A DNA stretch of 64,000 nt from an uncultured Spirochaetota bacterium. Lineage in GTDB: Bacteria > Spirochaetota > UBA4802 > UBA5550. Numbering within the stretch: the stretch's first letter is position 1; each line of letters begins with the position of its first letter. Positions 39,708-59,054 of this stretch are shown piece by piece. The notes beneath the pieces were generated by a model that saw nothing but the letters and a program-made list of their open reading frames with translations, did not search any database and was not told the DNA's origin. Where the stretch lies: the NCBI GenBank assembly GCA_963827275.1, contig CAWHAA010000010.1:64001-128000 (forward strand), read 5' to 3'. Made by a program: the position numbers and the translations under genes.

Positions 39708-39782
39708 CGGGGCGTAGCGCAGTCCGGTTAGCGCACTTGACTGGGGGTCAAGGGGTCGGAAGTTCAAATCTTCTCGCCCCGA
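39708..39782 (+). tRNA. tRNA-Pro (GGG), CCA not encoded
   Basis: Acceptor stem CGGGGCG/CGCCCCG, anticodon arm CTTGA-CTGGGGG-TCAAG, T-loop GTTCAAATC; promoter-like TTTACA-16-TATTGT at 39663-39690. Confidence 0.95.
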
Positions 39783-41856: not shown

Positions 41857-41991
41857 ATTCATTCCTGTCCCCGGATGGGGCGCGAAATAACATCATTCCT
41901 CGTTACTTTGCCGGGATGCCCGGCGGGCGATTAATGACGAGCGGACGCAGGCTCCTCCCTTTTTATTCCCTCAATCGTCGGGGGGCGAAAT

Positions 41992-42051
41992 GGGCGGGTT
42001 GCCCGCCCAGACCTTCGCATAGGGGGGCCGTTACACGACGGCCCCCCTATG
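41992..42051. repeat. REP-like GC-rich hairpin cluster
   Basis: GGGCGGG-TTG-CCCGCCC and CATAGGGGGGCCGT-TACACG-ACGGCCCCCCTATG (14-bp perfect stem). Confidence 0.6.
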
Positions 42052-42271
42052 AACCCCCCGCGTGGTCGCTCAAACGCCGCGTCAGGCTGATGCTTATGTA
42101 GGTTACTTATTCACGCCTCGTGTGCATTTTGAATTCGGTAGCCGCTTGCAGGATTGCCAAGAGTGTAGTTAAGAAATTATCGGCTTTCGCTCCGGAAGCC
42201 GCATCCTGCGGCATCCTCGCATCGCCGGGCCTCCTGCCCGGCGGCTAAGCCGGTATCAACCGAAATTTCTC

Positions 42272-42300
42272 TTGCAAATAATGCTTACTGCTGTTATACT
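42272..42300 (+). promoter_or_regulatory. Near-consensus sigma70 promoter at the left edge of the island
   Basis: TTGCAA-17 bp-TATACT with extended -10 TGn. Confidence 0.65.
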
Positions 42301-42387
42301 ATTCCACGGGTAGACATTCGTTTCGACTTTTCATAAATTTTTATCAATTTTCACGGCGCGCGCGATCTTTCGGCAGGCTCAGGACAA

Positions 42388-42490
42388 GAATTTTAAGCCT
42401 CTGTCCGGCGCTTTTTGTGCCGGAGGGGTGTCGGCTTCAGATAAAACGCATCCAGCCGCATAGGCCGCAACCTATGAGGGTGTATTTTCT
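42388..42490 (+). repeat. Structured dispersed repeat, copy R1
   Basis: TTAAGCC...TCCGGCGCTTTTTGTGCCGGAGGGG...TCGGCTTCAGATAAAACGCA, shared with 57882 and 58897. Confidence 0.8.
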
Positions 42491-42526
42491 TATGTATTAA
42501 ATTATTCTATTATTCGGGAGAGCGCA

Positions 42527-43918
42527 ATGATACCATGCAGGTTAAAAAGGACAGGATATGCATCTGGATTGATTATTTTTTTCATTGTATTGATGCTGGC
42601 GTTATCAGACGTACAGGCACAGACGGTAAATCCTCAAGATACCCTCAAGCAATATACTGCTGAATTAAAAAAGAATCCTGATAATTATGCCTTGCGGGAA
42701 AAAATCATCAAGCTTGCCCGAACCATAAAACCTGCACCTGCTATACCTGCCGATGCGGAAAACTCTGTCAAACGGGCGGAATCTGCATTCAATAAAGCCA
42801 AAACCGGGGCCGATTTCGCACAAGCAGCGAAGGAGTATGAGAAAGCACTCCTCGTCGCTCCATGGGTGCCTGATTACTATTATAATTGCGCAATCACCTA
42901 TGAAAAAGCTTCGAAACCGGAAGAAGCAATGCGTAATTATGAGCTCTATCTGACCGCAGTGCCCTATACTGCGGATGCGGGTGCTATACGCAAACGCATC
43001 TCGGATCTTGAGAAGCAGGCACAGGTGTCGAATTCTCGGGATGCCCTTAAACAGCATATAGCCGATTTAAAAAAGAATCCTGATAATTATGCGTTGCGGG
43101 AGAAAATAATCAAGCTTGTCAGAAGCATGACACCAGCTCCGGCCATGCCTTCTGATGCGCAAAATTATGCCAAAAGTGCGGAATCAGCATTCAACAAAGC
43201 CAAAACCGAAGCAGATTTCACACGAGCAGCGAAGGAGTATGAGAAAGCACTCCTCGTCGCACCATGGGTGCCTGACTACTATTATAATTGCGCCGTCACC
43301 TATGAAAAAGCTTCGAAACCGGAAGAAGCACTGCGTAATTATGATCTCTATCTGACCGCTGCCCCCAATACTGGGGATGCAAATGCCATACGAAAACATA
43401 TCGACGAACTTGAGAATCAGGCATATCGGGCTAAAAAATATGAAAAGGGATATGATTATAAAGAGAAAAAAAGAGACGAGCTTTTACTCCTGAACGCACA
43501 GAAATCAACCGTTGGAGCGTGGGCCATGTCATTTTTCATTGGAGCATTTACCCCCTTCCTCGGAAGCGGTCAGTACTTTGCTGAATCGTACGGGACGGCC
43601 GTATGCACTACGCTTATCGGGCTTGCTTCGTATGGAATATTCCTGGGTGGAGTGGTTCCGGAAGAAAATGCATCAGAGAATAGAATCAAGGAAAAAAGAA
43701 AACTCACGATTGCCGGTGGTGTGATATTTACCGCTGTCTGGTTTTTTGACTGGATATACGCGCCGCTGGCCACGATGAAATATAATGAGAAGTTGAAGGA
43801 AAAATTCTCGTCATCGACAGGTTCGATTGTTCCACTGTTTTCGTATGTTCCGCAATTTTCTTACAAATTATCAGATGTCGACCATGTTGTAAAGTTGGGG
43901 CTGTCTATGCGGTTTTGA
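42527..43918 (+). CDS. Secreted protein with a duplicated TPR module and a hydrophobic C-terminal domain
   Basis: Signal peptide (VQA-Q), two 134-aa repeats (YEKALLVAPWVPDYYYNCA), C-terminal GAFTPFLGSGQYF plus TM segments, ends in F. Confidence 0.85.
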   Translation: MIPCRLKRTGYASGLIIFFIVLMLALSDVQAQTVNPQDTLKQYTAELKKNPDNYALREKIIKLARTIKPAPAIPADAENSVKRAESAFNKAKTGADFAQAAKEYEKALLVAPWVPDYYYNCAITYEKASKPEEAMRNYELYLTAVPYTADAGAIRKRISDLEKQAQVSNSRDALKQHIADLKKNPDNYALREKIIKLVRSMTPAPAMPSDAQNYAKSAESAFNKAKTEADFTRAAKEYEKALLVAPWVPDYYYNCAVTYEKASKPEEALRNYDLYLTAAPNTGDANAIRKHIDELENQAYRAKKYEKGYDYKEKKRDELLLLNAQKSTVGAWAMSFFIGAFTPFLGSGQYFAESYGTAVCTTLIGLASYGIFLGGVVPEENASENRIKEKRKLTIAGGVIFTAVWFFDWIYAPLATMKYNEKLKEKFSSSTGSIVPLFSYVPQFSYKLSDVDHVVKLGLSMRF

Positions 43919-44050
43919 ATTTTGAGCAGGGTGCCCCTCGGTTGGTGCTGGATTATCTAACCTCTATGAAGTATTTTAATTATCCAGGATGTTACGGCCA
44001 CACCAGCACCGCCCGATGAGTAGGGTCAGGAGATGGCGCCGTTGGCATCA

Positions 44051-44121
44051 CCAGAGGGGGACATCTTCAGATAAAACGCATTCTGCCTCTTGCGACGGAA
44101 CTGATGGCAGGGCAATTTCCC
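44051..44121 (+). repeat. Structured dispersed repeat, partial copy R2
   Basis: GAGGGG...CTTCAGATAAAACGCAT (17 nt identical to R1) and GAACTGA in the same register as R3. Confidence 0.6.
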
Positions 44122-44260
44122 GGTTGATCATTAACAATTTCCATTGATTTTGAGATGATTTTTTTCATTATAATATATAATATATCAGTATCGTTTTAAC
44201 AGGCACAGTGCCCTGTTATTTTATTTATCAAATCAGATTCCACATATCTATCCAGAAAGG

Positions 44261-45361
44261 ATGAATTTTATGAAAAGAAACATTACTGCCACAATGAGAT
44301 TGTCCATCTTCTTAATGACTGCTTTGATATCGTTATTATTTTCCTTTGCCTGTAACAGAAGCGTCACCCCAGCTACCGATGATAGCGGTACCATGAATTT
44401 TTACTTTGGCAATATCCACAGTCACACCGGGCTTTCCGATGGCGAGGGCACGCCCGATGAAGCGTTCTCATGGGCGCGCGATGCGGCAAAGTATGATTTT
44501 TATATAAATACCGACCATGGCGAATACCTGTTCCAGGAACAGTGGGACAGCATCGGAGAATCTGCCGACGCATTTAATGAAGATGGAGCGTTTACGGCGA
44601 TAAGAGGATTTGAATACTCGGAGCCTCTGACCGGACACGCCTGTGTGTACAACACGGATTCCTTTACCGGGGCGGTATTAATGCCAATTTTTACGACATT
44701 CTACACATGGCTTGATCAAATAAATGGCCTCGCCGTATTCAACCATCCAGGCGATTTTGGCGATTTTAACAAATTACAATATTACGAAAAAGTCGCGGAT
44801 AATTTTTTCGGAATAGAAACAGGCAACGGCTCTGATGCCAACAATGACGGCACCTATCTTGATTACTATACGTTGGCCCTTGATAATGGATGGAGAGTGG
44901 CTCCGGTAAGCAACCAGGACAACCACTCCTTTTCCACAAACTCCCACAGGACCGTTATGGTATGTGAAAACCTGACCAGAGATGACATTTATGGCGCTAT
45001 GGCGGCTCGAAGAGTCTATTCTTCGGACGATCCCAACATGAAGATTGTTTTCAAGGCGAATGACGAATGGATGGGTTCGGAAATAAATGTTTCTGAAAAT
45101 AGCGTGGCCTTCACCGTCACTGTAACAGACGACGAGCCAATAACAAAAATGGAGCTGGTTACCGGGGAAGGAGTTGTTGCTTCGGAAATCTCATTTATTG
45201 ACAATAATGGATCGGCGGAATGGGTGCCAACGGTCGCCGTAAATGGAAGCACATACTTCTTTCTCAAGGTATACGAGACGAACCAGCTCGATGCGGATGA
45301 TCCAGGCGACGTTCAGATTGCGGTTACCGCGCCAATATGGATTACCGTATCTGGAATGTAA
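44261..45361 (+). CDS. PHP-fold metallohydrolase lipoprotein (CehA/McbA-like)
   Basis: Lipobox SFAC; GNIHSHT..SDG, TDH, GFEY, NHP, NQDNH metal ligands. Confidence 0.82.
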   Translation: MNFMKRNITATMRLSIFLMTALISLLFSFACNRSVTPATDDSGTMNFYFGNIHSHTGLSDGEGTPDEAFSWARDAAKYDFYINTDHGEYLFQEQWDSIGESADAFNEDGAFTAIRGFEYSEPLTGHACVYNTDSFTGAVLMPIFTTFYTWLDQINGLAVFNHPGDFGDFNKLQYYEKVADNFFGIETGNGSDANNDGTYLDYYTLALDNGWRVAPVSNQDNHSFSTNSHRTVMVCENLTRDDIYGAMAARRVYSSDDPNMKIVFKANDEWMGSEINVSENSVAFTVTVTDDEPITKMELVTGEGVVASEISFIDNNGSAEWVPTVAVNGSTYFFLKVYETNQLDADDPGDVQIAVTAPIWITVSGM

Positions 45362-45582
45362 GCCGTCTGCCCAAATCTTTTTGTGTTGAAGAATCTCAGG
45401 TGCCCGGGAGAGTTCTCCTGAAGCCAATTGTGACCCCCGGGCCTCTGCTGATGAGGTCACAGCTTCATATATATTAATATGTTGTAACGATTGATATATA
45501 AAATAATTTCAATCATCGGATTTCATCGCACTATTGTTATACCGGGTGACCTGCGATATCGGTACGATAAAGTTGAAATCGG

Positions 45583-47772
45583 CTATATTGCTATGTATTT
45601 ATTAGTGTCGATTCCGTACAGTTCGAAAAATATTTGATATAATTCGTATATGCTTCTTCTCGGATCATGTTTTTTTCTTACATCGCAGGCCGCGTTTTCT
45701 GAAATTGAGCCATACAATTCAGCGTTCTCGACTATTTCTCTTAAATGTTTTACCACACTCCCTTTTTCGGGTTCGGCCCATTCGCCTCCGGTATAAATTC
45801 CAGTCGGATCCTTGACGGGGACGATTTTATAATCCACCAGCAGGGAATTGCTGTTGTTGCAAATATCCATGCACCCTCCATAGGCAGTCGTAATTACCGG
45901 TTTGCCAAGGTACATGGATTCCAGGATGCCGAGTCCAAGCCCTTCCGACCGGTGAAGGGTGACATAGCAATCCGATGCATTCAATAATGAAATCCAATCA
46001 TTCCGCGACATGTTTTCATCTATCCAGATAATTTTTTTCCTGAGCCTTGCGGAATTAATGGCATCCCTGAATTCGCCGGACATGCTCTTGAACGATTCGG
46101 AATGCACGCTTTTAAGAACAAGCTTCACATTATCTTTGGAATCGAAAGCACTATCAAAGGCCTCGATGACCTGGATAGGATTTTTACGTATCATGGAACT
46201 GTGAAAATCAAAGCTGAAAATAAACACGAATTCCCCGGGTCCGATATTCAATTTATTTCTTACAATATCACGTTCGGTAATTCTGTTCCAGTTCGGATAA
46301 AACGGGTAGGTTATTTTACTTATCTTGATTTTCGAAAAAGGTTCTATTGAAGATTTTACAAAATCAGAACAAACCAGTATTCTGTCAACATAATTGAAGC
46401 TTTCCTTGAAGGGGAAATGGTTATTGACCTCCCACCACCACACGCCAATATTATATTTATTTTCAAAATATTCCGGGTATTTATTTGCCGCAATCGGTAC
46501 CTGATCGGCGTTAATGAAAGAAAGAGTTATATCCGACAGTGGCCGGGTATGTTTGAATCTTTTTAAATATGACAATTCACATTCCGGCACCTGGGCATGC
46601 CCCGGTTCTATTACGTCCAGCAGCGTGAAATAAATTCCGGATCTGCATAAAACTTTCAAGAAAGAGCGGGCCACTTCGGAAATACCCAGAGTATGTGAAA
46701 AGTAGCCCGCAATGTTTAACTTAATCATTTTGCTGAATTCAACATAATTGTTTAAAAGGCCGATGTAATCGGCCGAAGATCCGTGCGCGCCGGTATTGTC
46801 ATATGAATGTTTCCATAGGTTGAGAAAAATATTTTTCTTTTTTGAATATTTTTCGGGTTTCTTGCAGGAAATAACATTTTGATAATTAACGAACAATTTC
46901 TTTAAATCAGGCTTTTCTTCCAATGTAAATCTATTTTGATACTTCGATATGCTGTTTAAATTATCAAGCTGGATCCCGCTGAAATGGTAAAATACGATTT
47001 TTTCTCCATCAATTGTCCATGCATTATTCTCCAGTTTTATTTCTCTTTCATGCAGATTCCAATATGCAACATTGTACTTCTTGTTCTTAAGTATTTTTAC
47101 GTTTTCAAAATAAATCGGGACGAAATCGATCCATTTTTGATCGACAAACATCCCTCCTTCAAAATTAATATAGCAAAAATTGAACAGCCGCATTTTCCAC
47201 CATAAGATGAATTTTCTTGACTCTTCGCTATTACTGATTGCGATGAATCCCAGATTATAGATTCCTGTTTTAAGAATGTCCTGTTCCGACAGCCCTTTTG
47301 AATCCAGTGGCAATTCGGTTAAAATATGCGGAGTTAAAACTATATTATGATTGGTTAAATATTCATCAATTTCATCAATTGCCGATAAGACAATGATATC
47401 CGGATCAAGGTATACAATCTTTTCATACCCCCTGGCGATGAGGTAGTCAAAAACAAACGGTTTAAACGCGGTATTTAATTCAACTATGTTATATCTGCAG
47501 AGCATATCCTCAAGCTCGGCAAATTCAAAATGTTCTCTTATGCCATAAAGAGAAACCAATTCATATCCTTTTGCATATGCTTCAACGGCTTCGACTAGAT
47601 CGTTTATGTCTTCGAATATATCTGTAATATATATCATAAAATCCCAGTGGGGATTATGTTTCAGAAATGACTCGGCGAGCACCTTTCCGAAATGCAGATA
47701 GTTTTTCGACAGGATTGTATACGCGATGCGTTTTTTTTGATCCTGGAAATCAAGGAATAGTCTGTTTTTCAT
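45583..47772 (-). CDS. Two-domain glycosyltransferase (GT-A/GT8-like plus GT4)
   Basis: YLDPD, YNLGF, FVDQKW, YNVAYWNLHER; C-terminal HRSEGLGLGILESMYLGKPVI. Confidence 0.88.
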   Translation of the reverse strand: MKNRLFLDFQDQKKRIAYTILSKNYLHFGKVLAESFLKHNPHWDFMIYITDIFEDINDLVEAVEAYAKGYELVSLYGIREHFEFAELEDMLCRYNIVELNTAFKPFVFDYLIARGYEKIVYLDPDIIVLSAIDEIDEYLTNHNIVLTPHILTELPLDSKGLSEQDILKTGIYNLGFIAISNSEESRKFILWWKMRLFNFCYINFEGGMFVDQKWIDFVPIYFENVKILKNKKYNVAYWNLHEREIKLENNAWTIDGEKIVFYHFSGIQLDNLNSISKYQNRFTLEEKPDLKKLFVNYQNVISCKKPEKYSKKKNIFLNLWKHSYDNTGAHGSSADYIGLLNNYVEFSKMIKLNIAGYFSHTLGISEVARSFLKVLCRSGIYFTLLDVIEPGHAQVPECELSYLKRFKHTRPLSDITLSFINADQVPIAANKYPEYFENKYNIGVWWWEVNNHFPFKESFNYVDRILVCSDFVKSSIEPFSKIKISKITYPFYPNWNRITERDIVRNKLNIGPGEFVFIFSFDFHSSMIRKNPIQVIEAFDSAFDSKDNVKLVLKSVHSESFKSMSGEFRDAINSARLRKKIIWIDENMSRNDWISLLNASDCYVTLHRSEGLGLGILESMYLGKPVITTAYGGCMDICNNSNSLLVDYKIVPVKDPTGIYTGGEWAEPEKGSVVKHLREIVENAELYGSISENAACDVRKKHDPRRSIYELYQIFFELYGIDTNKYIAI

Positions 47773-47879
47773 CCACCCCCCCTGGGCCAGATAAAATCAT
47801 ACGATTAAAATATAATAATATAAAACCTGTTCCCATATAATCAAACCGGCTGTTTCGGTATATGGTGCATCCGCCATGG

Positions 47880-49499
47880 TCATGGTTTGTACGCAATTAT
47901 TGAGTAATCCAGTTCCATGTTGAAAAGTTTTAAAAGAGGACCTGGCATATCTTCCATTTGATTTGGCATGTCGGGCGGATGCAGTCGAATTATTTCAATA
48001 TTGCCGAATCCTCTTGCTTCAGCTATGAACTTCAGGGTATTGGGAGGAATCGGATTTTTATGTGTCGGATCTGCATAGAAATTACAGGAACCCACCAGTA
48101 AATTTTCAGGATTGGGAGTCTCAAGAATAAGCATTCCTCCTGATTTGAGAATGCGTACGCATTCGTCGAGCAGTGAAATTATTGATTCAAATTGTAAATG
48201 TTCAATAATGTGAAATCCGGTAATTACGCCGAAGCTGTTTTCATTTTGATTGCGCAAATAGCCAATGGCATCGGTCTCAACAACGGAAAGGCCCCGGTCC
48301 ATGCATTCACTTATCATCAAGGTATTGGAGTCTATGCCTGTTGCAGTAAAATTGTTTTCCTTAAGCAGCTCCAGCCATTCGCCCCGTCCGCATCCTATGT
48401 CGAGGATCGGCCATTGCATTGAATAGTTTTCACGCGCCGGCAGATACGGTATATACGCCTGCGCCCGATTTTTAATAACTTCCCGGGTTCCCCTGAACCG
48501 GTCCTCGAAAGACACATACAACGCGTCATAGAGATGATTTTTTTCTTCCAGGATATTTGAAATTTGCTCTGGTGAAAAAGGCTCCGGCATTCTCTTGCTC
48601 GCCTCTTCCAGCAAAAGAGCATGCCTTCGCTGCTGGTCCAGTACGTTGCGTTTTTGATCCAATATTTCAGATTTTGTTTCCGATAATTCCTGGTTGAGTT
48701 TGATGAGTTCATTCTGCAATAATTGCTTTTCTTCCCTTAAGGATAATAACATGTCTTTTAAGGATATGATCTCATCTCCAATCATTTTAAAATTCAATTC
48801 CTGATATACTGCTTTTTCATTGAAGGTCATTTTAATTTGAATAGCATCGTGTGCCACTTTCGTGTTTAGACGATCCAGTTTGCTATGCAATTTCGGGAGC
48901 TGTACCGCTATTATAAATAATCGGGCGCAATATCCCAGGAACGGCACCATCAGTGCCTTGTTTATGAGAAACCGCCTTCTCAATCCTTTTATGTTAATGC
49001 CATGTTCTATTCCTTCCTCTGTGTAAAACCTGATTCCGGCAAGAATATCGATTTTTGTTTTTGAACCGTCTCTTAGATGCTTGAGATACCCCTGGGAGCC
49101 TATTGGGTCAGGGTCGCGTTCAAGCAGCACCCGGTATGACTGAACAATAAATTCCTCGTCGTGATATGCCAGTAATGTTTTGAGTGTGTTGGCGGTGCGG
49201 TTGTTTTTTGTGATTTTATTGATAATCCCGGAATAAAGAAGGTTGTATGTGTTATTCATTCGCAATACATGGTTGAATTTCTCAAGGGTATGCCAGATAA
49301 AGGTGCTTTTTATTGCAGAGAAATTAAAGGGAGAGTCCTGTGAATTTGGCGACGGTGTTTCGCTGATGGAATTCACTCCATCCTGAATATTTTTACAAAT
49401 TTTTAATGGAGTATAATTTTTTGTCCTCAGGGCTGCATCGAGTCGCAACTTTTTCAGAACGCTTTCGATTTTGCTGTCATCTGTTAAATATCCGAACAT
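47880..49499 (-). CDS. DUF4214-like / coiled-coil / SAM methyltransferase (glycan chain terminator-like)
   Basis: YRVLLERDPDPIG, long coiled coil, FEDRFRG, LDIGCGRGEWL, FHIIEHL, ETPNP, DPTH. Confidence 0.85.
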   Translation of the reverse strand: MFGYLTDDSKIESVLKKLRLDAALRTKNYTPLKICKNIQDGVNSISETPSPNSQDSPFNFSAIKSTFIWHTLEKFNHVLRMNNTYNLLYSGIINKITKNNRTANTLKTLLAYHDEEFIVQSYRVLLERDPDPIGSQGYLKHLRDGSKTKIDILAGIRFYTEEGIEHGINIKGLRRRFLINKALMVPFLGYCARLFIIAVQLPKLHSKLDRLNTKVAHDAIQIKMTFNEKAVYQELNFKMIGDEIISLKDMLLSLREEKQLLQNELIKLNQELSETKSEILDQKRNVLDQQRRHALLLEEASKRMPEPFSPEQISNILEEKNHLYDALYVSFEDRFRGTREVIKNRAQAYIPYLPARENYSMQWPILDIGCGRGEWLELLKENNFTATGIDSNTLMISECMDRGLSVVETDAIGYLRNQNENSFGVITGFHIIEHLQFESIISLLDECVRILKSGGMLILETPNPENLLVGSCNFYADPTHKNPIPPNTLKFIAEARGFGNIEIIRLHPPDMPNQMEDMPGPLLKLFNMELDYSIIAYKP

Positions 49500-49529
49500 A
49501 ATACACCACCACTCTTCAACTTTTACACA

Positions 49530-50741
49530 TTAATTTACATCACTCATTTCTTCGAAAAACACCGAGGGGTACATTTTGCTTACTCCGATAAAGAATTCCC
49601 CGACATTGCCCGCAACTTCAAAACCGGTATAATTATCACACCAATCGATGCAATGATCTATATGCGCGGGGCCCGTATGAAGAGCTATGGATAACGTATA
49701 TTTTCCGACGCCAATATTCATATGCATCGAATACACGCACCGGTAATGCTTTCCCTTGAGCATGAATATTTCTTTTTTATAATAATGAGTATTTGTGCCG
49801 TAGATGTCACGGCCGAATACATCGTTAATTTTTATCCCGGCTGATACATTTGGAAGGTCTTCATATGATTCAATGTCGATAATTATGCTGGTTTTTTCGC
49901 CGGAGCTGATAATGTTTGATCCTGATTTCTCACCTTGAATGGTGATTTTCTTAATTCTTGCCTCGTGAGTGCCATAGGATTGATTCGTATCGCATTTTGT
50001 CTTATTTTTTGCGTCTGGTTCCGGATTTCCTGCGATTAGGAAATTATATCTATTCACCACATCTTCCGGATTTCCTTTTATGGCAATTCTTCCATGATCA
50101 AGCAGCATCGCGCTGTCGCAAAGTACCTTTATGGCATTCAAGTCGTGTGAAACAAAGATAATTGAACCGCCGCTGTTTTTGAATTCGTCGATTTTTTTTA
50201 CGCATTTTTGCTGGAATCTCGCATCGCCAACCGACAGGGCTTCATCCACCAGAAAACATCCGGGATTGGCATGAATGGCGATTGAAAACGCGAGCCTCAT
50301 TACCATCCCCGATGAATAGGTCTTGATCGCTTCATAAATAAATTCGCCCAGCTCTGTAAAATCGATTATCCGGTCTTTTATCCTGTCAATTTCTCCCCGT
50401 GACATGCCCAGAAGCAGGCCATTCATGTATATATTTTCGATCCCGCTCATTTCGAAATTAAAACCGGTGCCCAGCTCCAGGAGGCAGGTAATTTTTCCAT
50501 CGACATGAAGTGAACCGGTGTCCGGAAGATATATTCCAGTCATGATTTTCAATAACGTGGATTTGCCAGCCCCGTTTTCACCGATAACGCCGAGTATCAT
50601 GCCATTTCCCACCTCGAATGAGACGTCTCTGAGGGCCCAGAACTCCGTATGATGTGATTTACGGAAGAATAATTCCTTCAGCCGGTCAGCTGGCGACCTG
50701 TATAATTTAAATTTCTTTGAAACCGAATCAACCCGGATCAT
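49530..50741 (-). CDS. wzt: Polysaccharide ABC transporter ATP-binding protein with Wzt_C domain
   Basis: GENGAGKST, YSSGM, DEALSVGD, VSHD, C-terminal extension of about 160 aa. Confidence 0.92.
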   Translation of the reverse strand: MIRVDSVSKKFKLYRSPADRLKELFFRKSHHTEFWALRDVSFEVGNGMILGVIGENGAGKSTLLKIMTGIYLPDTGSLHVDGKITCLLELGTGFNFEMSGIENIYMNGLLLGMSRGEIDRIKDRIIDFTELGEFIYEAIKTYSSGMVMRLAFSIAIHANPGCFLVDEALSVGDARFQQKCVKKIDEFKNSGGSIIFVSHDLNAIKVLCDSAMLLDHGRIAIKGNPEDVVNRYNFLIAGNPEPDAKNKTKCDTNQSYGTHEARIKKITIQGEKSGSNIISSGEKTSIIIDIESYEDLPNVSAGIKINDVFGRDIYGTNTHYYKKEIFMLKGKHYRCVYSMHMNIGVGKYTLSIALHTGPAHIDHCIDWCDNYTGFEVAGNVGEFFIGVSKMYPSVFFEEMSDVN

Positions 50742-50913
50742 TCGGCTAACCCCTGAAATAAATATGCACAGATAAAAATCAGACAGAAATAAATGCAGCT
50801 GGCGATGATATGCCAGATGCCGCTGTATTTCCCATGCGCATATTTTTTTATTAAAAACTGCAGCAATGAGAAAACAAGTGTAACGATCACTACGCATAGT
50901 ATAAGTGTCTTGA

Positions 50914-51684
50914 TCATATGAAATCACGGATATCTTTTTCGAGTTTTTTGAAAATTACGTATGCAAATAATAAAATAACATGCCCCATAATGGCAAGTAT
51001 GATCAAATTTATGAAATCAGGGTATTTTGAGTAGACAAAAATATCGTGATATGCGGACACGAAATAATATGCCGGGTTGAATTTATTAAGCGTCTTCATG
51101 AAATCTGGTACGATATCAATTACATACACAACAGGCGTCAGCCAGAACCAGACCTGGAGAATGATATTGATGATTTCCTTGAAATCCCTGAAAAACACGA
51201 CAAGTATGCTGAAAAAAAATCCGGCGGCATAGGCAAATATCTGCTGGACCAGATAAATAAACGGCAGAAATATTATTGATTCGGATATTGGGTTGCCGGT
51301 AAGAATTAAAAAAATAAAGTATATAAAATAGGTGATGCTGAATGTGATTGTTTCTGAAAGCACCACATACAGCAGAAGAGAGGGCATCGCCAATCGTACC
51401 TTCGATATTATGCTTTTTTTATCCAGAAATACGGTGGATGAGCGGAGTATGGTGTTTACAAAAGCGGTCCAGGGGACAATGCCGGATACAAGGTATACGA
51501 CATACGGCAAACCGCTGCTTGTCCCCGGGCGTATTTTTGCTCCCATGATATTTGAGAAGACCACCGTATAAATGAGTATCATTACCAGCGGCCAGATGAA
51601 AGCCCAGAAAACACCGAGAATTGAACCGGCATACCGTTCAATAAAATCTCTTTTTGTAAATTCATAAAGCAAACGAATATTCAT
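50914..51684 (-). CDS. wzm: Polysaccharide ABC transporter permease
   Basis: RYAGSILGVFW, FRD, WLTPVVY, NP; six TM segments. Confidence 0.92.
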   Translation of the reverse strand: MNIRLLYEFTKRDFIERYAGSILGVFWAFIWPLVMILIYTVVFSNIMGAKIRPGTSSGLPYVVYLVSGIVPWTAFVNTILRSSTVFLDKKSIISKVRLAMPSLLLYVVLSETITFSITYFIYFIFLILTGNPISESIIFLPFIYLVQQIFAYAAGFFFSILVVFFRDFKEIINIILQVWFWLTPVVYVIDIVPDFMKTLNKFNPAYYFVSAYHDIFVYSKYPDFINLIILAIMGHVILLFAYVIFKKLEKDIRDFI

Positions 51685-52156
51685 GCGCCAACTTGCACCT
51701 ATCTGCCGTATTCTTCATCGAAATCTGTTTGATATTTTGCCCGGAATAATATTTTTTATTCAAAGGAATATATCACCCCCTATTTATTTCGGGGTTAAAT
51801 TCGGCAGTCCAATTTCCCATTTATTCTTGATTACAAGGAGGGGATTTTATTTGTCAATCAAAGATATAAATAACCACAAAAAATGCTGTATTTTTGCGTA
51901 TCACACCATGCCTTTTACAATGATACTATCAGTTACATTATGAATCAGTTTGATGTAAATATTCTGGCAATACACGCAATCGGATAAAACATGTACAAAT
52001 GTCTATTTTGTATATTGATAATTTGATGATTGAAATGGAAATATAACAGAGAAAGAGCAGTTCTATGTAATCACTGTTATTTATTCGATGAATTGATCAT
52101 GCTCAATGGGTGTTAATGATCGTAATCCAGATCCAACGTAAAAAATCCCGCCTGTA

Positions 52157-53878
52157 CTATTTGGATAATTGGCTCTTTGGGTTATTCAACAGCACCATGC
52201 TCTGGGCACGTTCAACAAATTCCAGTATCACCAGGGATGGACGTTTTTTTTCAATTATTGATGTATCGAAACCGCCAAGAACTCTCAATTCATGTATTTC
52301 TTTAATATCATTTTTTAGATAGTCAACCAGAAGCTCTCCAAAACTGTCATGAAAAAATATTGCATTTTTAATTTTTGATCGTTCTTCGTGAACTGATGAT
52401 TTTACGGGTTGAAGAAAGACTTCTTTTTCAAATTGATAGCCGGGCAATAACATCAATCGACTCAGATCAGGTATAAATGTTTTGTTTTCCAAAGAAACAA
52501 TCTGATAATTATCTATTGAATCAGGTTTAATAGAGGGAAATAGATTCGATATATATCGTTTAAGTTTAAAGTAGGCAATTAACGCTCCATATCCATTCCA
52601 ATGCGTATCTAATTTATAAAATAATGGAAATTTCGATTTTGCATTGATAAGATCATTTCTGACATCAATTATTTCAACATCAGAATTTTTCTTCATGTAC
52701 TCAACAAGCTGATCGAGCCTGGTAACGGGGAGAACTCTTTTAAAATTGTCAGGAAGATATTCCGGATAAATGGTTTCCTTGTTCGGTGCAATCAAAACTA
52801 GATACGGTATTCCTTTTTCACGAAGATAATTTCTTTGATATTCAAGATTCACTTTTATTTTTTCCAGTTCTTCTTGAGAATATGGAGAGAGGCCCATCCA
52901 ATCTTTAAAAGAATTCATTTTAGCTGAATATTTTTCTGAATAAAAGAACGACCAGCCGCTTTTACCGACAACAACATAGGAGACCGGTGATATTCCGAGA
53001 AAATGATATTTTAAAAGGCTGTTGCAAAGGATGAGGTGGTTCCTCATGCTGAAATTGTCTAAAAAATAATTTTCATATTTTCTAAAAAAATATTGAATTT
53101 TTTTGACTTCAAAATTTGGTTTAATGGCCAATGTACGGAATTCTGGATTTACAAGCTCCTTGATAAAATGAAAACCCATGTTTGTCATCGGCAGGGCAAT
53201 CATTATGAAAAATAGAACAGCAAATGATGAATTAATTACATTCACGGCTTTATTGTTGATAATTATCCAGTGTATGAAAAAGCCAGCTCCAAAACAAATC
53301 ATGAAAGTGAAAAATATGAGACTCAATTTTATCATTACCCTGTATGACAGGGGCATCATTCGGTATATTTTTCCAAAATCATTAAATGACAATTGGGGAT
53401 CTAATTTCGTTGATTTGATATATACCAGCCCATCCTTTTCAACGAATTGATCAAGTGCTTGATTGGATTTGAAATCCCTGATAATGTCACGTGAATTCCA
53501 TGTGTGTATCGAAAATACCAGGAATTTCAATGAAATTGACTTGATGATCTCTTCACCCGGCCCGGTCATTGGATCCAACCTGATTTTTCTTATGGTGCAA
53601 AAAAATGGCAGGTTAAAGCTGATTGCACCATTCATGTTATCATGGTAGCTCACTAATATCTTTTCAGAATCGGTTTCATTGATTTCATTTCCAATATCGA
53701 AGAAAAACTGAAATTCTTCTTGTTTTATAATTTTTCGTAATTCAATTTCCAGTGAAGTAATCGGTACATTATGGGATAATATGGCGTTGGAAGCCATAAC
53801 AAAAATCGCGAAAAGGATTATATATGCTCCCCGGATAATGTTTCTTTGCGTTACATACTCAATAAACAATTTTTTCAT
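52157..53878 (-). CDS. AlgJ/AlgX-like SGNH O-acetyltransferase with an N-terminal extracytoplasmic domain
   Basis: GKSGWSF, IAPNKETIYPEYLP, KLDTHWN, HDSFG, EFVER. Confidence 0.85.
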   Translation of the reverse strand: MKKLFIEYVTQRNIIRGAYIILFAIFVMASNAILSHNVPITSLEIELRKIIKQEEFQFFFDIGNEINETDSEKILVSYHDNMNGAISFNLPFFCTIRKIRLDPMTGPGEEIIKSISLKFLVFSIHTWNSRDIIRDFKSNQALDQFVEKDGLVYIKSTKLDPQLSFNDFGKIYRMMPLSYRVMIKLSLIFFTFMICFGAGFFIHWIIINNKAVNVINSSFAVLFFIMIALPMTNMGFHFIKELVNPEFRTLAIKPNFEVKKIQYFFRKYENYFLDNFSMRNHLILCNSLLKYHFLGISPVSYVVVGKSGWSFFYSEKYSAKMNSFKDWMGLSPYSQEELEKIKVNLEYQRNYLREKGIPYLVLIAPNKETIYPEYLPDNFKRVLPVTRLDQLVEYMKKNSDVEIIDVRNDLINAKSKFPLFYKLDTHWNGYGALIAYFKLKRYISNLFPSIKPDSIDNYQIVSLENKTFIPDLSRLMLLPGYQFEKEVFLQPVKSSVHEERSKIKNAIFFHDSFGELLVDYLKNDIKEIHELRVLGGFDTSIIEKKRPSLVILEFVERAQSMVLLNNPKSQLSK

Positions 53879-53923
53879 GAAATTCAATGTTCTTACCTGC
53901 AATAACCGGACAACCGGAAATAA

Positions 53924-55370
53924 TTAAAACTTAAAATAAAGAAAAGGATGATAGGTGACGCTTGCCACCTGGATTACGCACAGGAATAATATGACAAGGA
54001 TAATTATATTGTATCCGATATGGACAAATAGTCCTGGCACCCTTGAATAACCGATATCAGTCTTCAATAGCAGATTGTTGATTATACTTCTTAAAAAAGG
54101 AAACAGTGAGGTTGAAAATACGATTCCAAGAATATATGCTATTATAATATTATTATCTATGAACATTCCGGCATAATAATGGTCGCTCCCGTGCGACAGC
54201 CCGGCCATGGTTTTGATGTATTGAACGGCGGATGTCAGCGATTCGGAGCGGAAAAAAACCCATCCCAGCGTGATAATGAGGATCGCATATACGTGCCGGA
54301 GTGGAGACCATAGGGAATAGATAAATTTTCCCAGGTTTGCTCCTCTCTATAATAAGAAATGTGCCATGCCAGAGTCCCCATATCGCAAAGCACCAGCTCG
54401 CACCATGCCATAATCCGCAGAGGAAAAAAACGATGAGCAGATTAATATACATCCTTGCCGGGCCGACCCTGTTGCCGCCGAGCGGAATATACAGGTAGTC
54501 CTTGAACCATGTGGAAAGTGATATATGCCATCGCTGCCAGAAATCCCTGATAGATTTTGACATATAGGGATAATTGAAGTTCTCCATAAAGCGAAATCCG
54601 AACATGCGGCCCAGCCCTATTGCCATATCAGTGTATCCGGAAAAATCAAAATATAACTGGATGGTATACCCGATGGCGCCCAGCCATGCCGCGGACATCG
54701 TTAAATCGTGAACATTTACCTTGAATATCTCATCCACAACAGGAGCAATCGTGTCGGCGATCAGGACCTTTTTCCCCAACCCTATGATGAACCGTTGAAT
54801 GCCGCCGGCTAACGTTCCGGAATCAATTTTTCTTTCTTTGAACTGGTCCGATACGTCGGGGTACCGGCTTATAGGGCCCGCCATCAATTGCGGAAAAAGC
54901 GATATATATAGTCCGACATTGACTATATTGTTATCAGCAACAATTTTTTTTCTGTAGACATCAATAATATATGACAATGCCTTGAATGTGAAAAATGATA
55001 TTCCTATGGGGAGATGATATTTCGGTATGGTGATGGTGTCGAAGCTGAGTATGGAAACAATAAAGTGCGTGTATTTGATAAATATGAGCATCCCGAGATT
55101 CGCAATTATGGCGAGGATTGTAATCGCTTTTCTTTTCTGCACGCCGGCAGTCGTATCGGTGTTATTATAATAGCTTATCCGCCGCGCGAAAAAATAGTTA
55201 AACAGTATAGAGATCATGATAATGAGAACATAATAATCCTCACCGCAGGCGTAAAAGAAAATGCTTATAACCAGAAGTAGCACGTTTCTCCATTGCTGCT
55301 TTGAGGTAAAATATATCAAAAGTACAGCCGGTAAAAACAGAAACAGGAAAATCGGGGAAGTGAATATCAT
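53924..55370 (-). CDS. algI: AlgI-like MBOAT O-acetyltransferase (frameshift near 54328)
   Basis: LPIGISFFTF, FPQLMAGPI, YFDFSGYTDMAIG, FWQRWHISLS, GLWHGA; C-terminal PFLYFKF lies in a second frame. Confidence 0.88.
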
Positions 55371-55509
55371 ATGATCTTGAATTTTTCTCCTGATAAAAAA
55401 TCAGCTGATTTGCTTCAAACCCAGTTATAATGAAACAAATGAGCCGTTGCTACCATTGAAAAGTAAATGGAAAATAATCATTAATAGCTGGTGTGCGGAT
55501 GATTCAGTT

Positions 55510-57213
55510 TCATTGATTATATGTAAAATACTTCAATAGTGCTATGTTCTCCGCTCTTTCAACTATTTCCAGAATGACAATCCCGGGGCGTTCTTTTTCA
55601 ATTATGGATTTATTAAATCCATTGCCCCAGTGCAGATCGCGAATATCCTCAAAATCATTTTTTAAATATCCCGAAAGAGAGTCGCCAAAGCTGTCATGAA
55701 AAAATAGAACCTTTTTTATTTTTTTTTTATCCTGCAGTTTGGATATATTTTTATGTTCTACTATAACATTATGATCAATAAAATACTGGGGCAACAGCAT
55801 CAATCTGCTTAAATCGGAACGAAACGTTTTGCCGGTGATGGATGAAATAGTATATTCGTTATATGAAAACAGGCCAATGAAGGGAAACAGCTGCGCGATA
55901 TATTGCTTAAGCCGGGAATATGCCACAAGTGCTCCATATTCATTCCAGTGGGTATCGGTTTTAAAATATACCGGATACTTTTTTTTCGCCTCCATCAGAT
56001 CCTTTCTGATGTCAATTATATGAATGTCGGATGTATTTTTCAAATAACTTATTATCTGGTCAAGCCTGGTAGCGGGAAGAACTCTTTTAATGATGTCGGG
56101 AAGAAATTCCGGATATATGGTTTCCTTGTTCGGCGCTATTAATATCGCATACTGTATTCCCATTCCACGAAGATAATTTCTTTGGGATTCAAGACTATTT
56201 TTTATTTTTTCAAGGTCTTCCTGCGAATTTGCGGCGAGACCCATCCAGTCCCTGATTGTGATATATTCCGGTGTTCGTTTCTCGGAATAAAAAAATAACC
56301 AACCGTCCTTGCCTCTGATAACATAGGGAACCGGCGAGTTGTTAAGAAGATAATACTTGAAAAGGCTGTTGCAGAGGAGCAGATGGTTCCTGAATCCAAA
56401 GTAATCGTTAAAATATTTTTCATATTTTTTATATAGTTCAGTCATATCGCTGTTTTTAAACATTGGTTTGTGGGACAATTCGCGCTGTTCGACATTTTCA
56501 AGTTCCTTGAAAAAATGAAGTCCCATATTCATCGCTGGCAGCGAAACCAGTATGATGAATAAAACGGTCATCGATGTATTGATCACATTTCTGGCTGCCC
56601 TGTTAATAACTATTTCATGAACAAAAAAGCGGATGCCAATACACGCCAGAAATAGAAAAAATATCAGGCTCAATTTAATCAATAATTTATATGCCGCGGG
56701 AATGCCGGCATATATTTTACCCATGCCGGCATATGCAATATTAGGGTCATCCTGATTGGATTCAATATATACCTGTCCATCTTTATCGGCAAAGCTGCTG
56801 ATTGATTTATTGCAGATGAAATCTTTGACGATATTGCGTGAATCCCAGGTATACAGTGTGAGGAAGAGGTATTTCAGTGAAATTGATTTTATGACACCGG
56901 CGCTTTTCCGGGTCCATGGATCCAGTCTAAAAATTTTAATAGTTTTATAAAAAGGCAGATCAAAATTTATTTCCTGTGGTATTTTATCACGTTTGTTTAG
57001 TACTGATTTTTCACTATCGATTTCATTTAAATTCCTCCCGATATCATAGTAAACTTGAAATATATCTTTTTGTTGAAATGAGTGCAATTCAACGGACAGG
57101 GTTGTGATAGGGACATTTTTGATTATTATCCATACGGATAACACGATAAAAATGGAAACGAGAAGAAACTCGACCGCGCGAATGACTTTATTTTGATGAA
57201 ATACTACACCCAT
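55510..57213 (-). CDS. AlgJ/AlgX-like SGNH O-acetyltransferase, paralog of 52157..53878
   Basis: GKDGWLF, IAPNKETIYPEFLP, KTDTHWN, HDSFG, EIVER. Confidence 0.85.
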   Translation of the reverse strand: MGVVFHQNKVIRAVEFLLVSIFIVLSVWIIIKNVPITTLSVELHSFQQKDIFQVYYDIGRNLNEIDSEKSVLNKRDKIPQEINFDLPFYKTIKIFRLDPWTRKSAGVIKSISLKYLFLTLYTWDSRNIVKDFICNKSISSFADKDGQVYIESNQDDPNIAYAGMGKIYAGIPAAYKLLIKLSLIFFLFLACIGIRFFVHEIVINRAARNVINTSMTVLFIILVSLPAMNMGLHFFKELENVEQRELSHKPMFKNSDMTELYKKYEKYFNDYFGFRNHLLLCNSLFKYYLLNNSPVPYVIRGKDGWLFFYSEKRTPEYITIRDWMGLAANSQEDLEKIKNSLESQRNYLRGMGIQYAILIAPNKETIYPEFLPDIIKRVLPATRLDQIISYLKNTSDIHIIDIRKDLMEAKKKYPVYFKTDTHWNEYGALVAYSRLKQYIAQLFPFIGLFSYNEYTISSITGKTFRSDLSRLMLLPQYFIDHNVIVEHKNISKLQDKKKIKKVLFFHDSFGDSLSGYLKNDFEDIRDLHWGNGFNKSIIEKERPGIVILEIVERAENIALLKYFTYNQ

Positions 57214-57262
57214 TGCACTGCCCTTGCTGCATTAAATCACTCAGGAAGCGGTACTCTGTCAA

Positions 57263-57670
57263 CTATTTATTCAACATACGCTCAAATCTTCGTTTGGAGG
57301 GCATTATATGATGCGGCGTGATTCCGCTTCGCATGCAACAATATCTGGCGGAAAGGATTTTAGATTCGCTGGCAGGTACAGTGCGGATTAAGGTACGCTG
57401 GCAGGCATTGATCGCCGCTACGTCGCTCGTGGCGGGACTCCCCACCTCCTGCCCGTGATTAAAACATTCGTCGACGTCGTACCCTGCATCTTCAATGACG
57501 CTCCGAATATCGTCAATCGTTACGGTTTTATCGTCAAATTCCACGGTCACTTTTTTCGTATTCGGGTCAGCGTTGACGTTTATAATACCTGTCAGTTCAT
57601 TTACCGCATTTTCAATGATCATCTTGCAGTGGTTGCAGCTCATGTCAGGGGTGCTTAATATTTTTTTCAT
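57263..57670 (-). CDS. copZ: CopZ-like heavy-metal-associated chaperone (tail after about aa 68 doubtful)
   Basis: DMSCNHC metal motif, IEDAGYDV; RBS AGGAGG. Confidence 0.8.
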   Translation of the reverse strand: MKKILSTPDMSCNHCKMIIENAVNELTGIINVNADPNTKKVTVEFDDKTVTIDDIRSVIEDAGYDVDECFNHGQEVGSPATSDVAAINACQRTLIRTVPASESKILSARYCCMRSGITPHHIMPSKRRFERMLNK

Positions 57671-57720
57671 TTGTTGTTTCCTCCTGATGATACTCTGAAC
57701 AGACTCGTTTTACAGGAATT

Positions 57721-57850
57721 CTATTTACCCGGAAATTCAACAACCTTTTTAACGATATTGTCTTTCGTGAAACCGAAATACTCCGCCAGCGCCTTTGCGG
57801 GCCCGGACACCCCGAGCTGCTCCATGGTGATGTAGAGGGCGTGGGGCCGT
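57721..57850 (-). pseudogene. tkt: Transketolase C-terminal remnant
   Basis: ITMEQLGVSGPAKALAEYFGFTKDNIVKKV resembles the transketolase C-terminus (FGxSxP...FGFT..NI); the rest of the gene is absent. Confidence 0.65.
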
Positions 57851-57881
57851 CCTCTCCTGCGAAAAACAAGTCGTGGGTGAA

Positions 57882-58000
57882 GAAAACTTAAGCCACTATC
57901 CGGCGCTTTTTCTGCCGGAGGGGGCTTAATCTGAGAGGGGCCTGTTTCACATAAAACGCGTTGTGTCACCTGTTCATGAACTGAACAGGTAGCTTTTCCC
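57882..58000 (+). repeat. Structured dispersed repeat, copy R3
   Basis: TTAAGCC...TCCGGCGCTTTTTCTGCCGGAGGGGGCTTAATCTGAGAGGGG...ATAAAACGC. Confidence 0.8.
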
Positions 58001-58216
58001 AATATAATAATGATAAGATTTTTTCAAGTTTATTGATCTGAGAGATTCAATATAAAGAAAAAACATTGATTTTTTAAATAATAAGCATAAGGTATAACCG
58101 ATTTATAGAATCTCATTATACATTTATAGATAGCGCCCTATTTTCTGTTTGAATATAAATAGTATATTGAGAAAAAAATTAAACAATCTGATATGTTATA
58201 TAATACCAGGAGGGAT

Positions 58217-58834
58217 ATGATGACACGTATCTTTGCGTTTTTGCTTGTAGTATCGTTTCTTGTCGGGTGCTCGTCTTTTGAAGTTGCGGTAAATGACGAT
58301 CCATTTAAAGGCACCACCTTCGTATCTGCGGACATGTGGCACAAGGTTATTGATCAAAATAAAATGGTGTTTGATAATCAGAGGTTCTTGTATGAAAAGG
58401 AGATAAAAAAAGGGAAGGTTTCAAATCCAACGGCATATTTTCTGTTCAAACTCGCGGTTGTTTCTATATTGGGATACAATGGCGAAGATTTTGAAAAAAC
58501 CGCATATATAGTGTGCGATAACAAAAATTTCAAAGCCAATATAATTGACTATAACAAGGTTGAAAGGACTAATGTATCTGGTGAAGCCAAAAGTACAATA
58601 AACTGGGTCAATAGGACAACATCTGCAGAATCAGAAATTGGTACTTCACATATTTGCACAGTTACCGGTAAAATCGTATTGACTCCAGATATTCAACAGG
58701 CAATAGCAAATTGCAGCGTATATATGATACGGTTTTATTTAGCCAAAAACAATGTGCCGGTGACTTTACAGGCAACTGATTCTCAATTAGATGCGGTTAA
58801 GAGGTTTATATCAGTGGATGCTTCAAATAAATAG
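58217..58834 (+). CDS. Hypothetical lipoprotein
   Basis: RBS AGGAGG, lipobox LVGC, DDPFKG motif; AT-rich codon usage. Confidence 0.8.
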   Translation: MMTRIFAFLLVVSFLVGCSSFEVAVNDDPFKGTTFVSADMWHKVIDQNKMVFDNQRFLYEKEIKKGKVSNPTAYFLFKLAVVSILGYNGEDFEKTAYIVCDNKNFKANIIDYNKVERTNVSGEAKSTINWVNRTTSAESEIGTSHICTVTGKIVLTPDIQQAIANCSVYMIRFYLAKNNVPVTLQATDSQLDAVKRFISVDASNK

Positions 58835-58896
58835 AAAAGCAGAAGAGTTAAATAGGGTTAATGATTCTTCTTCCGTACCGGAGATGTAGGTAAATA

Positions 58897-58983
58897 GAAT
58901 TTTTAAGCCCCTTTCCAGCGCTTTTTCTGCCGGAGGGGGCATAATTTGAGAGGGGTTCGGCTTCTGATAAAACACATTCAGCA
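58897..58983 (+). repeat. Structured dispersed repeat, copy R4 (3' truncated)
   Basis: GAATTTTTAAGCCCCTTTCCAGCGCTTTTTCTGCCGGAGGGGGCATAATTTGAGAGGGGTTCGGCTTCTGATAAAAC. Confidence 0.8.
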
Positions 58984-58984
58984 T

Positions 58985-59054
58985 TTTATCACGTGCCCCC
59001 TATGGGGGACAGGGGGTAATACTTTATCACGTGCCCCCATCGGGGGACAGGGGG
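58985..59054. repeat. Tandem 32-bp hairpin repeat (two copies, 38-bp period)
   Basis: TTTATCACGTGCCCCC[TAT/ATC]GGGGGACAGGGGG at 58985 and 59023. Confidence 0.85.

Follow-up and report, generated by a model that had tools for sequence, protein, structure and literature searches.

What kind of sequence recurs in a single orientation between unrelated genes of low GC content, with no gene for a recombinase in sight? The question is raised by a 64,000-nt stretch of DNA from an uncultured Spirochaetota bacterium (contig 10, positions 64001–128000, of GenBank assembly GCA_963827275.1; hereafter the window), in which an AT-rich island between a gene for a PTS EIIA-type protein and a gene for a PHP-domain protein carries four copies, R1 to R4, of a structured repeat. 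The initial annotation of the window took the island for a cassette-like array lacking an integrase and suggested that the repeat might be a recombination site for single-gene modules, and hence part of an undescribed gene-capture system, with a non-autonomous mobile element or a shared cis-regulatory leader as alternatives. Our analysis supports this interpretation in part. A new integrase-free recombination site for single-gene cassettes found no support, the repeat being the 3’ end of an insertion sequence (IS) of the IS91 family, and a rolling-circle transposase supplied in trans likely mobilizes the solo copies, which would be miniature derivatives of this element. The assembly (G000 below) comprises 4.13 Mb in 11 contigs and is 92% complete; relatives were analyzed in a comparison set of 31 genomes, including G000 and 16 congeners.

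The features from which the initial annotation started are real. Repeat searching placed 60-nt copies at three sites (42386, 57881 and 58896), to which a 27-nt family contributes a fourth (44053), all on the plus strand; plus-strand open reading frames (ORFs) start about 28, 127 and 182 nt downstream of R1, R2 and R3, respectively, and GC content is 0.34–0.49 over 42–59 kb versus 0.50–0.64 around. The TTGCAA-17-TATACT promoter-like site before R1 is present as well (9/12 match, with a TG extension), and the window appeared devoid of recombinase and transposase genes, as judged from the 18 ORFs of 39.9–61.8 kb that were scanned and from a tblastn search with the IS91-type transposase, which gave no match in the window. 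An nhmmer profile built from R1, R3 and R4 yielded 64 matches at E<=1 and 46 at E<=1e-5 in G000. The repeat is a discrete unit of 125–127 nt, termed the module here, with about 46 copies in this genome, most of them without a transposase. Two sets of copies show no differences at all, one of five on contig 8 (100% identity over 127 nt) and another of three (100% over 125 nt), which suggests recent spread. The identical copies have sharp borders, with no target-site duplication in the flanks of eight exact copies and no terminal inverted repeats in the exact module copies.

The origin of the module is revealed by one intact copy of an element of about 1.57 kb on contig 8 (83421 to ~81860), composed of a GC-rich left-end palindrome, a transposase gene (tnpA), about 200 nt with an outward promoter-like site and a leader, and, at its very end, the module. 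The 410-aa tnpA product matches the Pfam families Y2_Tnp (PF04986, E 3.6e-19) and Zn_Tnp_IS91 (PF14319, E 1.7e-16) and scores 154.3 bits against the NCBIfam model NF033538, ‘IS91 family transposase’ (cut-off 125; model positions 7–341 of 356); an H-V-H triplet and a YY..Y cluster, which we take to be the catalytic residues, are visible in the translation. The 3’ non-coding part, with the outward promoter-like site, amounts to about 330 nt and harbors no orf121-like gene. By tblastn, a decayed second IS copy was located on contig 8, transposase remnants were located directly upstream of modules on contigs 1, 5 and 10, and two more remnants on contigs 10 and 4. A Y2/HUH transposase gene thus adjoins the contig-8 array of modules, and the non-autonomous mobile element that the initial annotation had listed among its alternatives is the reading that holds.

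The relationship between element and solo copies is close. Identity between the two contig-8 IS copies is 84% over a stretch that begins 72 nt before the start codon and reaches into the module, and the module variant of each is that of the adjoining solo copies; the latter correspond to the last 125–127 nt of the two IS copies with 100% identity, but come without a transposase. About 10 copies, always the first in their cluster and including R1, are preceded by the conserved promoter-like site and leader. The pattern TTGCxA-17-TAnnnT is kept in these ~10 genome copies and in the IS copies of seven species, and the segment before R1 aligns with the post-tnpA region in the ~10 genome copies and with IS positions 1348–1577: the promoter before R1 belongs to the conserved 3’ non-coding region of the IS. 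At the opposite end, a GC-rich stem-loop about 50–70 nt upstream of tnpA is found in six species, though differing in sequence between them. The last ~125 nt of the element contain two palindromes, and the two IS ends are not mutual inverted repeats. With about 27% identity of its transposase to the best plasmid-borne relatives, and less than 60% identity to all 2283 records retrieved, the element is a new member of the IS91 family with a natural high-copy family of solo origin-end modules, which is a variant of known behavior.

Relatives allowed us to separate the end of the element from chance neighbors. Pfam Y2_Tnp is matched in 17 of the 31 genomes and in 12 of the 16 congeners. Transposase orthologues with 78–84% identity are encoded by G001, G003, G008, G011, G012 and G013, aligned over 408–410 of 410 residues in the first five and cut by a contig end in G013; G021, which represents another family, encodes a transposase with 60% identity. 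When the DNA following the tnpA stop codon was aligned for seven species, the promoter-like site, the leader, a GC-rich stretch and the start of the module were present in all seven, and the 3’ half and terminus of the module were seen in five of the seven right ends (G011 reaches the contig end and G003 is masked there). Homology between the right ends stops just past the module. Published work on the IS91 family describes a single palindrome in the terminator end (terIS), whereas the origin end (oriIS) has two in IS91 as well as in IS801 but one in IS1294 (PMC13181058). Since the module follows tnpA across species in the same way and fits this layout, we regard it as the right-hand end, of origin type, of an element of the IS91 family rather than as a site that adjoins the IS by chance.

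In the genome, the modules are clustered and oriented. For 37 of 46 copies another copy lies within 20 kb, whereas random placement (2000 trials) yielded 15.9 such copies on average and never more than 29, and 8 of the 11 multi-copy clusters have a single orientation. The module top strand coincides with the locally C-rich strand in 34/46 copies or, counted by cluster (n = 20), in 14 concordant versus 3 discordant and 3 mixed cases, bearing in mind that kin copies are not independent. The flanking 1.5 kb of 27 of the 46 copies fall under the 10th GC percentile of the genome. The family is not confined to the window. The next downstream ORF is co-oriented with the module in 28 and opposed in 18 of the 46 cases; such low co-orientation speaks against a dedicated 5’ leader role, one of the alternatives considered initially.

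In folds of single module copies, a first palindrome precedes a second domain, where a closing helix surrounds a small hairpin and a longer palindrome; the two palindromes are imperfect. In an alignment of 42 copies, 81.7% of the cells pair versus 76.2% in shuffles (0/500 reach the observed value), although these figures lean towards structure because the alignment was fitted to the covariance model. Slid partners pair at 37–58%, and changes on both sides occur in 26 of 37 pairs. For R3, the folding z-scores are −3.39 (RNA parameters, top strand) and −3.57 (DNA parameters, bottom strand); across copies, stability is higher for the transposase-sense strand in 29/32 with RNA parameters and in 22/32 with DNA parameters, yet this strand is rich in G+T (0.54) and G-U pairs are frequent. 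RNAalifold on a plain MAFFT alignment of 32 copies gave only three pairs, owing to a register problem. Several candidate readings were discarded. A hammerhead-like CUGAUGAG in one subfamily is not kept across copies, a terminator reading of the first palindrome lacks a T-run behind it, and a likeness of the first palindrome to the left-end hairpin of the IS came down to an unspecific 11-mer that occurs 25 times in the genome, 19 times outside modules. At gathering scores, Rfam matched only a tRNA in the whole window, and scans at relaxed E-values gave chance-level matches at R1 and R2 and nothing at E<=1 at R3 and R4.

How might a mere end have multiplied? By analogy with IS91 and IS801, whose right end (oriIS) starts rolling-circle transposition, the module would act as the origin end of the element. 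Short right-end pieces could arise when transposition halts early, and copies might insert as single strands; if one particular strand went into single-stranded DNA at the replication fork, this would explain the strand bias described above. If the 127-nt module held the origin plus a stop signal in its first palindrome, it would constitute a mini-element that can be moved in trans. Three copies, among them R1, may be internally deleted ISs, with a left-type hairpin still present within 700 nt. Read-through past the left border of the module, i.e. one-ended transposition, may have dragged neighboring DNA along and left truncated genes behind.

A number of observations weigh against this explanation or limit it. 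The exact copies are not followed by CTTG or GTTC, the target tetranucleotide that abuts the origin end in the IS91 members studied and is diagnostic of them; their flanks read AAAT (twice), AAAA, AAGA, AATG, TAAA, TATA and TCGA (n = 8), from which an A-rich target is possible. Solo modules start with AAAT or AAAA, whereas the left end of the IS starts with a C-run, unlike the situation in IS801 fragments. The module structure favors the transposase-sense strand, opposite to the bottom strand reported as the active intermediate of IS91 (PMC13181058). A cargo common to module copies was not detected by megablast of the 2-kb flanks of the 46 copies, all matches of at least 200 nt being IS sequence, and landing of modules in AT-rich foreign DNA explains the GC association equally well. 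In favor of mobility, copy number is patchy: the covariance model finds 37 matches in G000, 19 in G009, one to six in five other congeners and one in another family, that is, in 8 of the 31 genomes, with none in ten congeners; as the model derives from three identical copies and is narrow, the figures for relatives are minimum values. Just one other species-representative genome contains an exact 25-nt core pattern.

Turning to the island itself (Table 1), EIIA and PHP genes are convergent neighbors in 15 of the 16 congeners, with 49–108 nt between the matched stretches, so that 41857 to ~59074 represents a 17.2-kb insertion; in the exception, G009, the two genes lie on different contigs and other AT-rich DNA follows EIIA. 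The EIIA gene is 74–85% identical in the 16 congeners, and homology ends at its stop codon. The interval is thus strain-specific, in keeping with the initial proposal, and bears IS-derived sequence at both edges. On the left, a hairpin 12 nt past the EIIA stop codon matches the left-end hairpin of the IS in 15 of 16 nt, which is a weak match (E 0.18); together with the debris, the IS 3’ region and R1, it forms a transposase-less IS remnant (41857–42498) that opens the island. R4 closes it at the PHP-side edge, as described initially, with a pair of REP-like repeats standing in place of its 3’ third. The three modules besides the IS remnant lie at segment borders within the island. The notion of single-gene modules fails here, as the interval between R2 and R3 is filled by a 12-kb minus-strand cluster of about 10 genes, including GT8/GT1 and methyltransferase genes, Wzt plus an ABC-2 permease, two AlgX-like SGNH genes and an MBOAT gene. 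Truncated genes adjoin the left border of R3 and of a module on contig 8 (C8:66018). At R3, the small gene beside the HMA gene is cut exactly at the module border, and its missing 5’ part is absent beyond R3; segment 57445–57846 is 69% identical to a sequence elsewhere in the same genome (contig 1, 227318–227685) and up to 83% identical to a congener. At the contig-8 module, an AMP-binding gene fragment is reduced to the C-terminal third.

Table 1. Features of the EIIA–PHP island and its flanks, with positions in the window.
Feature	Position	Strand	Basis and remarks
PTS EIIA-2/zinc-ribbon gene, left flank	41038..41856	+	Pfam PF00359, PF02591
GC-rich debris, left edge	41857..42261	+	Hairpin 41869–41884 and 318-nt segment 41917–42234
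IS91-family 3’ non-coding region, no transposase gene	42262..42385	+	Promoter-like site 42272–42300, leader, 23-nt insert ending at 42388
R1	42386–42498	+	Full span; 16-nt internal deletion in first palindrome
TPR-repeat protein gene	42527..43918	+	Pfam TPR families
R2	44053–~44133	+	3’ two-thirds of module, without first palindrome; nhmmer E 0.011, extended model E 4.4e-11
CehA/McbA-family metallohydrolase gene	44261..45361	+	NCBIfam NF038032, 122.9 bits (cut-off 80); Pfam DUF3604
Fifth, weak 3’ module fragment	45427–45481	+	nhmmer, extended model, E 2.5e-5
Polysaccharide synthesis/export cluster, ~12 kb	45583..57213	-	Pfam; GC 0.33–0.44
HMA-domain gene and 3’ part of small gene	57263..57880	-	Pfam HMA
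R3	57883–58010	+	Complete module: two palindromes and closing helix; covariance model 50.4 bits
Orphan ORF, 213 aa	58193..58834	+	No Pfam/NCBIfam match
R4	58898–~58984	+	5’ two-thirds of module, 3’ end replaced; covariance model 40.9 bits
Two copies of REP-like repeat, unrelated to module	58985–59054	+	Genome-dispersed repeat family
PHP-domain gene, right flank	59075..59923	-	Pfam PF02811

Were the modules the carriers of the island cargo, or did they settle in AT-rich foreign DNA that had arrived otherwise? In the former case, the island or its segments would have come by one-ended or composite rolling-circle transposition, which would proceed leftward from the origin end of a module until a ter-like site is reached; such a process would amount to Helitron-like gene capture in bacteria and would restate the initial idea in rolling-circle terms. 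We regard such capture as possible, if rather doubtful. In its favor, a hairpin reminiscent of the IS left end marks the start of the island, 12 nt past the EIIA stop codon, and R4 marks its end, one gene breaks off precisely at the left border of R3 and does not resume on the far side, the core-like 0.6-kb piece beside R3 is nearer to a congener (83%) than to the copy in its own genome (69%), a fragment of an AMP-binding gene abuts another module, and IS801 and IS91 are reported to mobilize DNA past their left end (PMC3189936, PMC13181058). Yet the hairpin match is weak and GC-rich hairpins of this type are common, with a loose version of the motif occurring 27 times and the shared 11-mer 25 times in the genome, R4 is devoid of the 3’ terminus, no cargo is duplicated along with a module in G000, and the insertion that G009 carries at this site is another one, without a module within 1.5 kb. 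Moreover, most genomic IS801 fragments were attributed to reorganizations rather than to one-ended transposition by Bardaji et al. (PMC3189936). Circles joining R3 and R4, another element of the initial proposal, were not found in the contigs of public sequencing runs; contig joints from R3/R4 to R1, which might be taken for such circles, have sides of only 38–50 nt and fit genome copies that combine variants, such as the one at C10:453917. Seven public DNA runs had matching DNA, with shares of at most 0.10; fragments with 95–100% identity are present in runs X1–X4.

A quite different thought is that the module works mainly as an RNA, transcribed from the outward promoter as a small structured molecule or a shared 5’ leader, and that its spread reflects RNA function. 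The promoter-like site upstream of modules and in the IS copies of seven species, the better folding of the top strand in 29/32 copies and the pairing statistics with their double changes would be in line with this view, and the outward promoters of ISCR1 may drive downstream genes (PMC6218425). On the other hand, promoter and leader accompany only ~10 of 46 copies, the next ORF is co-oriented in just 28 of the 46, there is no Rfam family match, the model-fitted alignment favors structure, G+T richness favors G-U pairing by itself, and both main palindromes also form as DNA on the other strand. It is therefore unlikely, in our judgment, that this IS91-type element encodes a promoter-driven structured RNA of about 200 nt at its origin end and that the RNA is what multiplied. 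If true, the transposon would own a non-coding RNA with a part in regulating or guiding transposition or in the control of neighboring genes. Such an RNA might exist side by side with the role of the module as DNA. Non-coding RNAs are known for IS200/IS605 and IS110 elements; we know of no such RNA for rolling-circle IS91 elements. Still less probable is that the module is an independent genomic repeat which serves IS91-type elements as an insertion target. The left border of solo modules (AAATTTT...) is indeed sharp and coincides with the junction to the GC-rich stretch of the IS, a 23-nt insert sits exactly at this junction in several copies, and G010 has four modules and no match to a Y2 transposase. 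However, the module lies at the same distance after the transposase gene in 7/7 species, which would call for an independent insertion beside a copy in each of them; its sequence co-varies with that of its IS, both IS copies of G000 matching the adjoining solo variants, and the homology between IS copies runs across the junction into the module. To the idea that a tyrosine recombinase encoded elsewhere acts on the repeats as attC-like sites (CALIN, clusters of attC sites lacking an integron integrase) we give next to no credence, notwithstanding the same-orientation palindromic repeats between unrelated low-GC genes. Integrons are said to occur in some spirochaetes. Here, however, the best integron-integrase match reaches 127 bits with TIGR02249 versus a cut-off of 265, with similar matches in 14/14 control genomes; the core pair RYYYAAC...GTTRRRY is absent on either strand from all 46 copies (0/46), as had been noted initially for the window; sequence is strongly conserved, unlike that of attC sites; gene orientation between the repeats is mixed; and an IS91 transposase gene is linked to the repeats without anything unrelated in between. 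The explanation we favor remains that of an IS91-family right end whose solo copies are likely moved in trans.

Some further observations concern the island and its surroundings. Exactly between the IS 3’ region and the module of R1 (42366–42388) there is a 23-nt motif ending in CAAG, which recurs at the same junction in several copies of G000 and in the ISs of G001 and G012, but also inside modules (C10:167511, C10:169931 and C4:452681) and at a few sites without any such relation; allowing for up to 3 mismatches, it has 17 matches versus 2 for a reversed control and behaves like a tiny insertion of its own. A sigma-54 promoter considered for the GG...TTGC stretch was dismissed by eye, the spacing being wrong. 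A direct repeat of 10 nt borders the 318-nt GC-rich segment at the left edge. In two public metagenome runs (X1 and X3), contigs that otherwise match at 97–99% do not contain this segment; parts of it recur beside transposase remnants on contigs 4 and 10. It may represent either a small insertion or a site of deletion between direct repeats. The TPR gene contains an internal 402-nt duplication with 84% identity (42614–43315), and the AlgX-like genes (52185–56431) are paralogues with 71–74% identity, 3347 nt apart. The REP-like repeat next to R4 has a GC-rich palindromic unit of about 32 nt, its two copies lying 38 nt apart, and dozens of BLAST matches, often paired, are spread over all contigs. 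A tRNA gene (39708–39782) is found 2 kb to the left of the island; since the biotin-ligase and EIIA genes lie between them, the island was not inserted at the tRNA gene.

Elsewhere in the genome, C8:65635–66018 is a nest of four partial modules, one of them inverted, and resembles a local rearrangement hotspot. The module cluster at 154–160 kb of contig 8 also comprises a gene for a Mutator-family transposase (L011:5092-6270) and a Prim-Pol gene (L011:8057-8995) in DNA with a GC content of 0.24–0.39, i.e. other mobile DNA at the same sites. Genes for aminoacyl-tRNA synthetases directly adjoin four IS copies or module clusters (L010:9641-11802, L007:3712-5259, L011:12392-13432 and L013:854-2596), namely AlaRS (two ORFs), a C-terminal ValRS ORF, a class II enzyme of the Asp/Lys/Asn type and a Glu/GlnRS. 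This adjacency may be due to chance or to site preference.

What looked like a new gene-capture system thus becomes a case of a little-studied behavior of the IS91 family, in which the origin end, multiplied alone, has reached dozens of copies and is found where strain-specific DNA of an uncultured spirochaete lineage begins or ends. Natural high-copy families of this kind would show that rolling-circle ISs can yield many more protein-less than autonomous copies, as Helitrons do. A 127-nt unit and one intact transposase offer defined substrates for determining the minimal origin and terminator needs of IS91-type elements. For annotation, modules are of use as markers of island borders and of past rearrangement.

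Compared with known systems, the module has some traits in common with several and is closest to one. It shares same-orientation structured repeats with attC/CALIN arrays, but there is no IntI, there are no core sites, the sequence is conserved and an HUH transposase gene is joined to it. REP/REPIN sequences are 20–40 nt long and depend on Y1 transposases (RAYT), unlike the 125–127-nt module joined to a Y2 transposase gene, and classical miniature inverted-repeat transposable elements differ by their terminal inverted repeats and target-site duplications. In Helitrons, short protein-less derivatives outnumber autonomous copies, hairpins are subterminal and gene fragments adjoin. The module family resembles non-autonomous Helitrons in these traits, although the Helitron enzyme (a Rep/helicase fusion) and terminal motifs differ; we mean this as an analogy, not as membership. 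With ISCR elements, as exemplified by the P_OUT promoters of ISCR1, it shares the IS91-like rolling-circle type, outward promoters near the origin end and a position at the borders of unrelated acquired genes (PMC6218425); however, the NCBIfam model of the ISCR clade gives 32.5 bits versus a cut-off of 925, and a link to class 1 integrons or resistance genes is lacking.

Among IS91-family elements, which are described as having neither inverted repeats nor target duplications (PMC13181058), the element agrees with IS91, IS801 and IS1294 in these two absences, in its Y2/HUH transposase, one GC-rich palindrome on the left and two on the right, and a length of about 1.5 kb. It deviates by the ~27% transposase identity to plasmid relatives, the missing CTTG/GTTC, the long 3’ part and the absence of an orf121-like gene. 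A literature search for IS91-derived miniature elements found no published report of high-copy IS91 mini-elements, and the term IS91 in connection with spirochaetes did not occur in the papers among the matches listed. The closest precedent is provided by IS801, for which right-end fragments of 229, 360 and 679 nt were obtained by one-ended transposition in a trap assay in Pseudomonas syringae pv. phaseolicola (Bardaji et al. 2011, PMC3189936), and copies of which had in some cases taken along as much as 1431 nt of the DNA past the left end (PMC3189936). The IS801 fragments were few, of variable length (229–679 nt) and began at a tetranucleotide like that of the IS left end, whereas here a single unit of 125–127 nt exists in about 46 clustered copies, known from sequence, and begins at AAAT, immediately before a GC-rich hairpin. 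In both cases, however, contiguous pieces without a transposase have kept the right terminus, and the movement in trans that is described for IS801 would, by the same token, account for the modules of this spirochaete.

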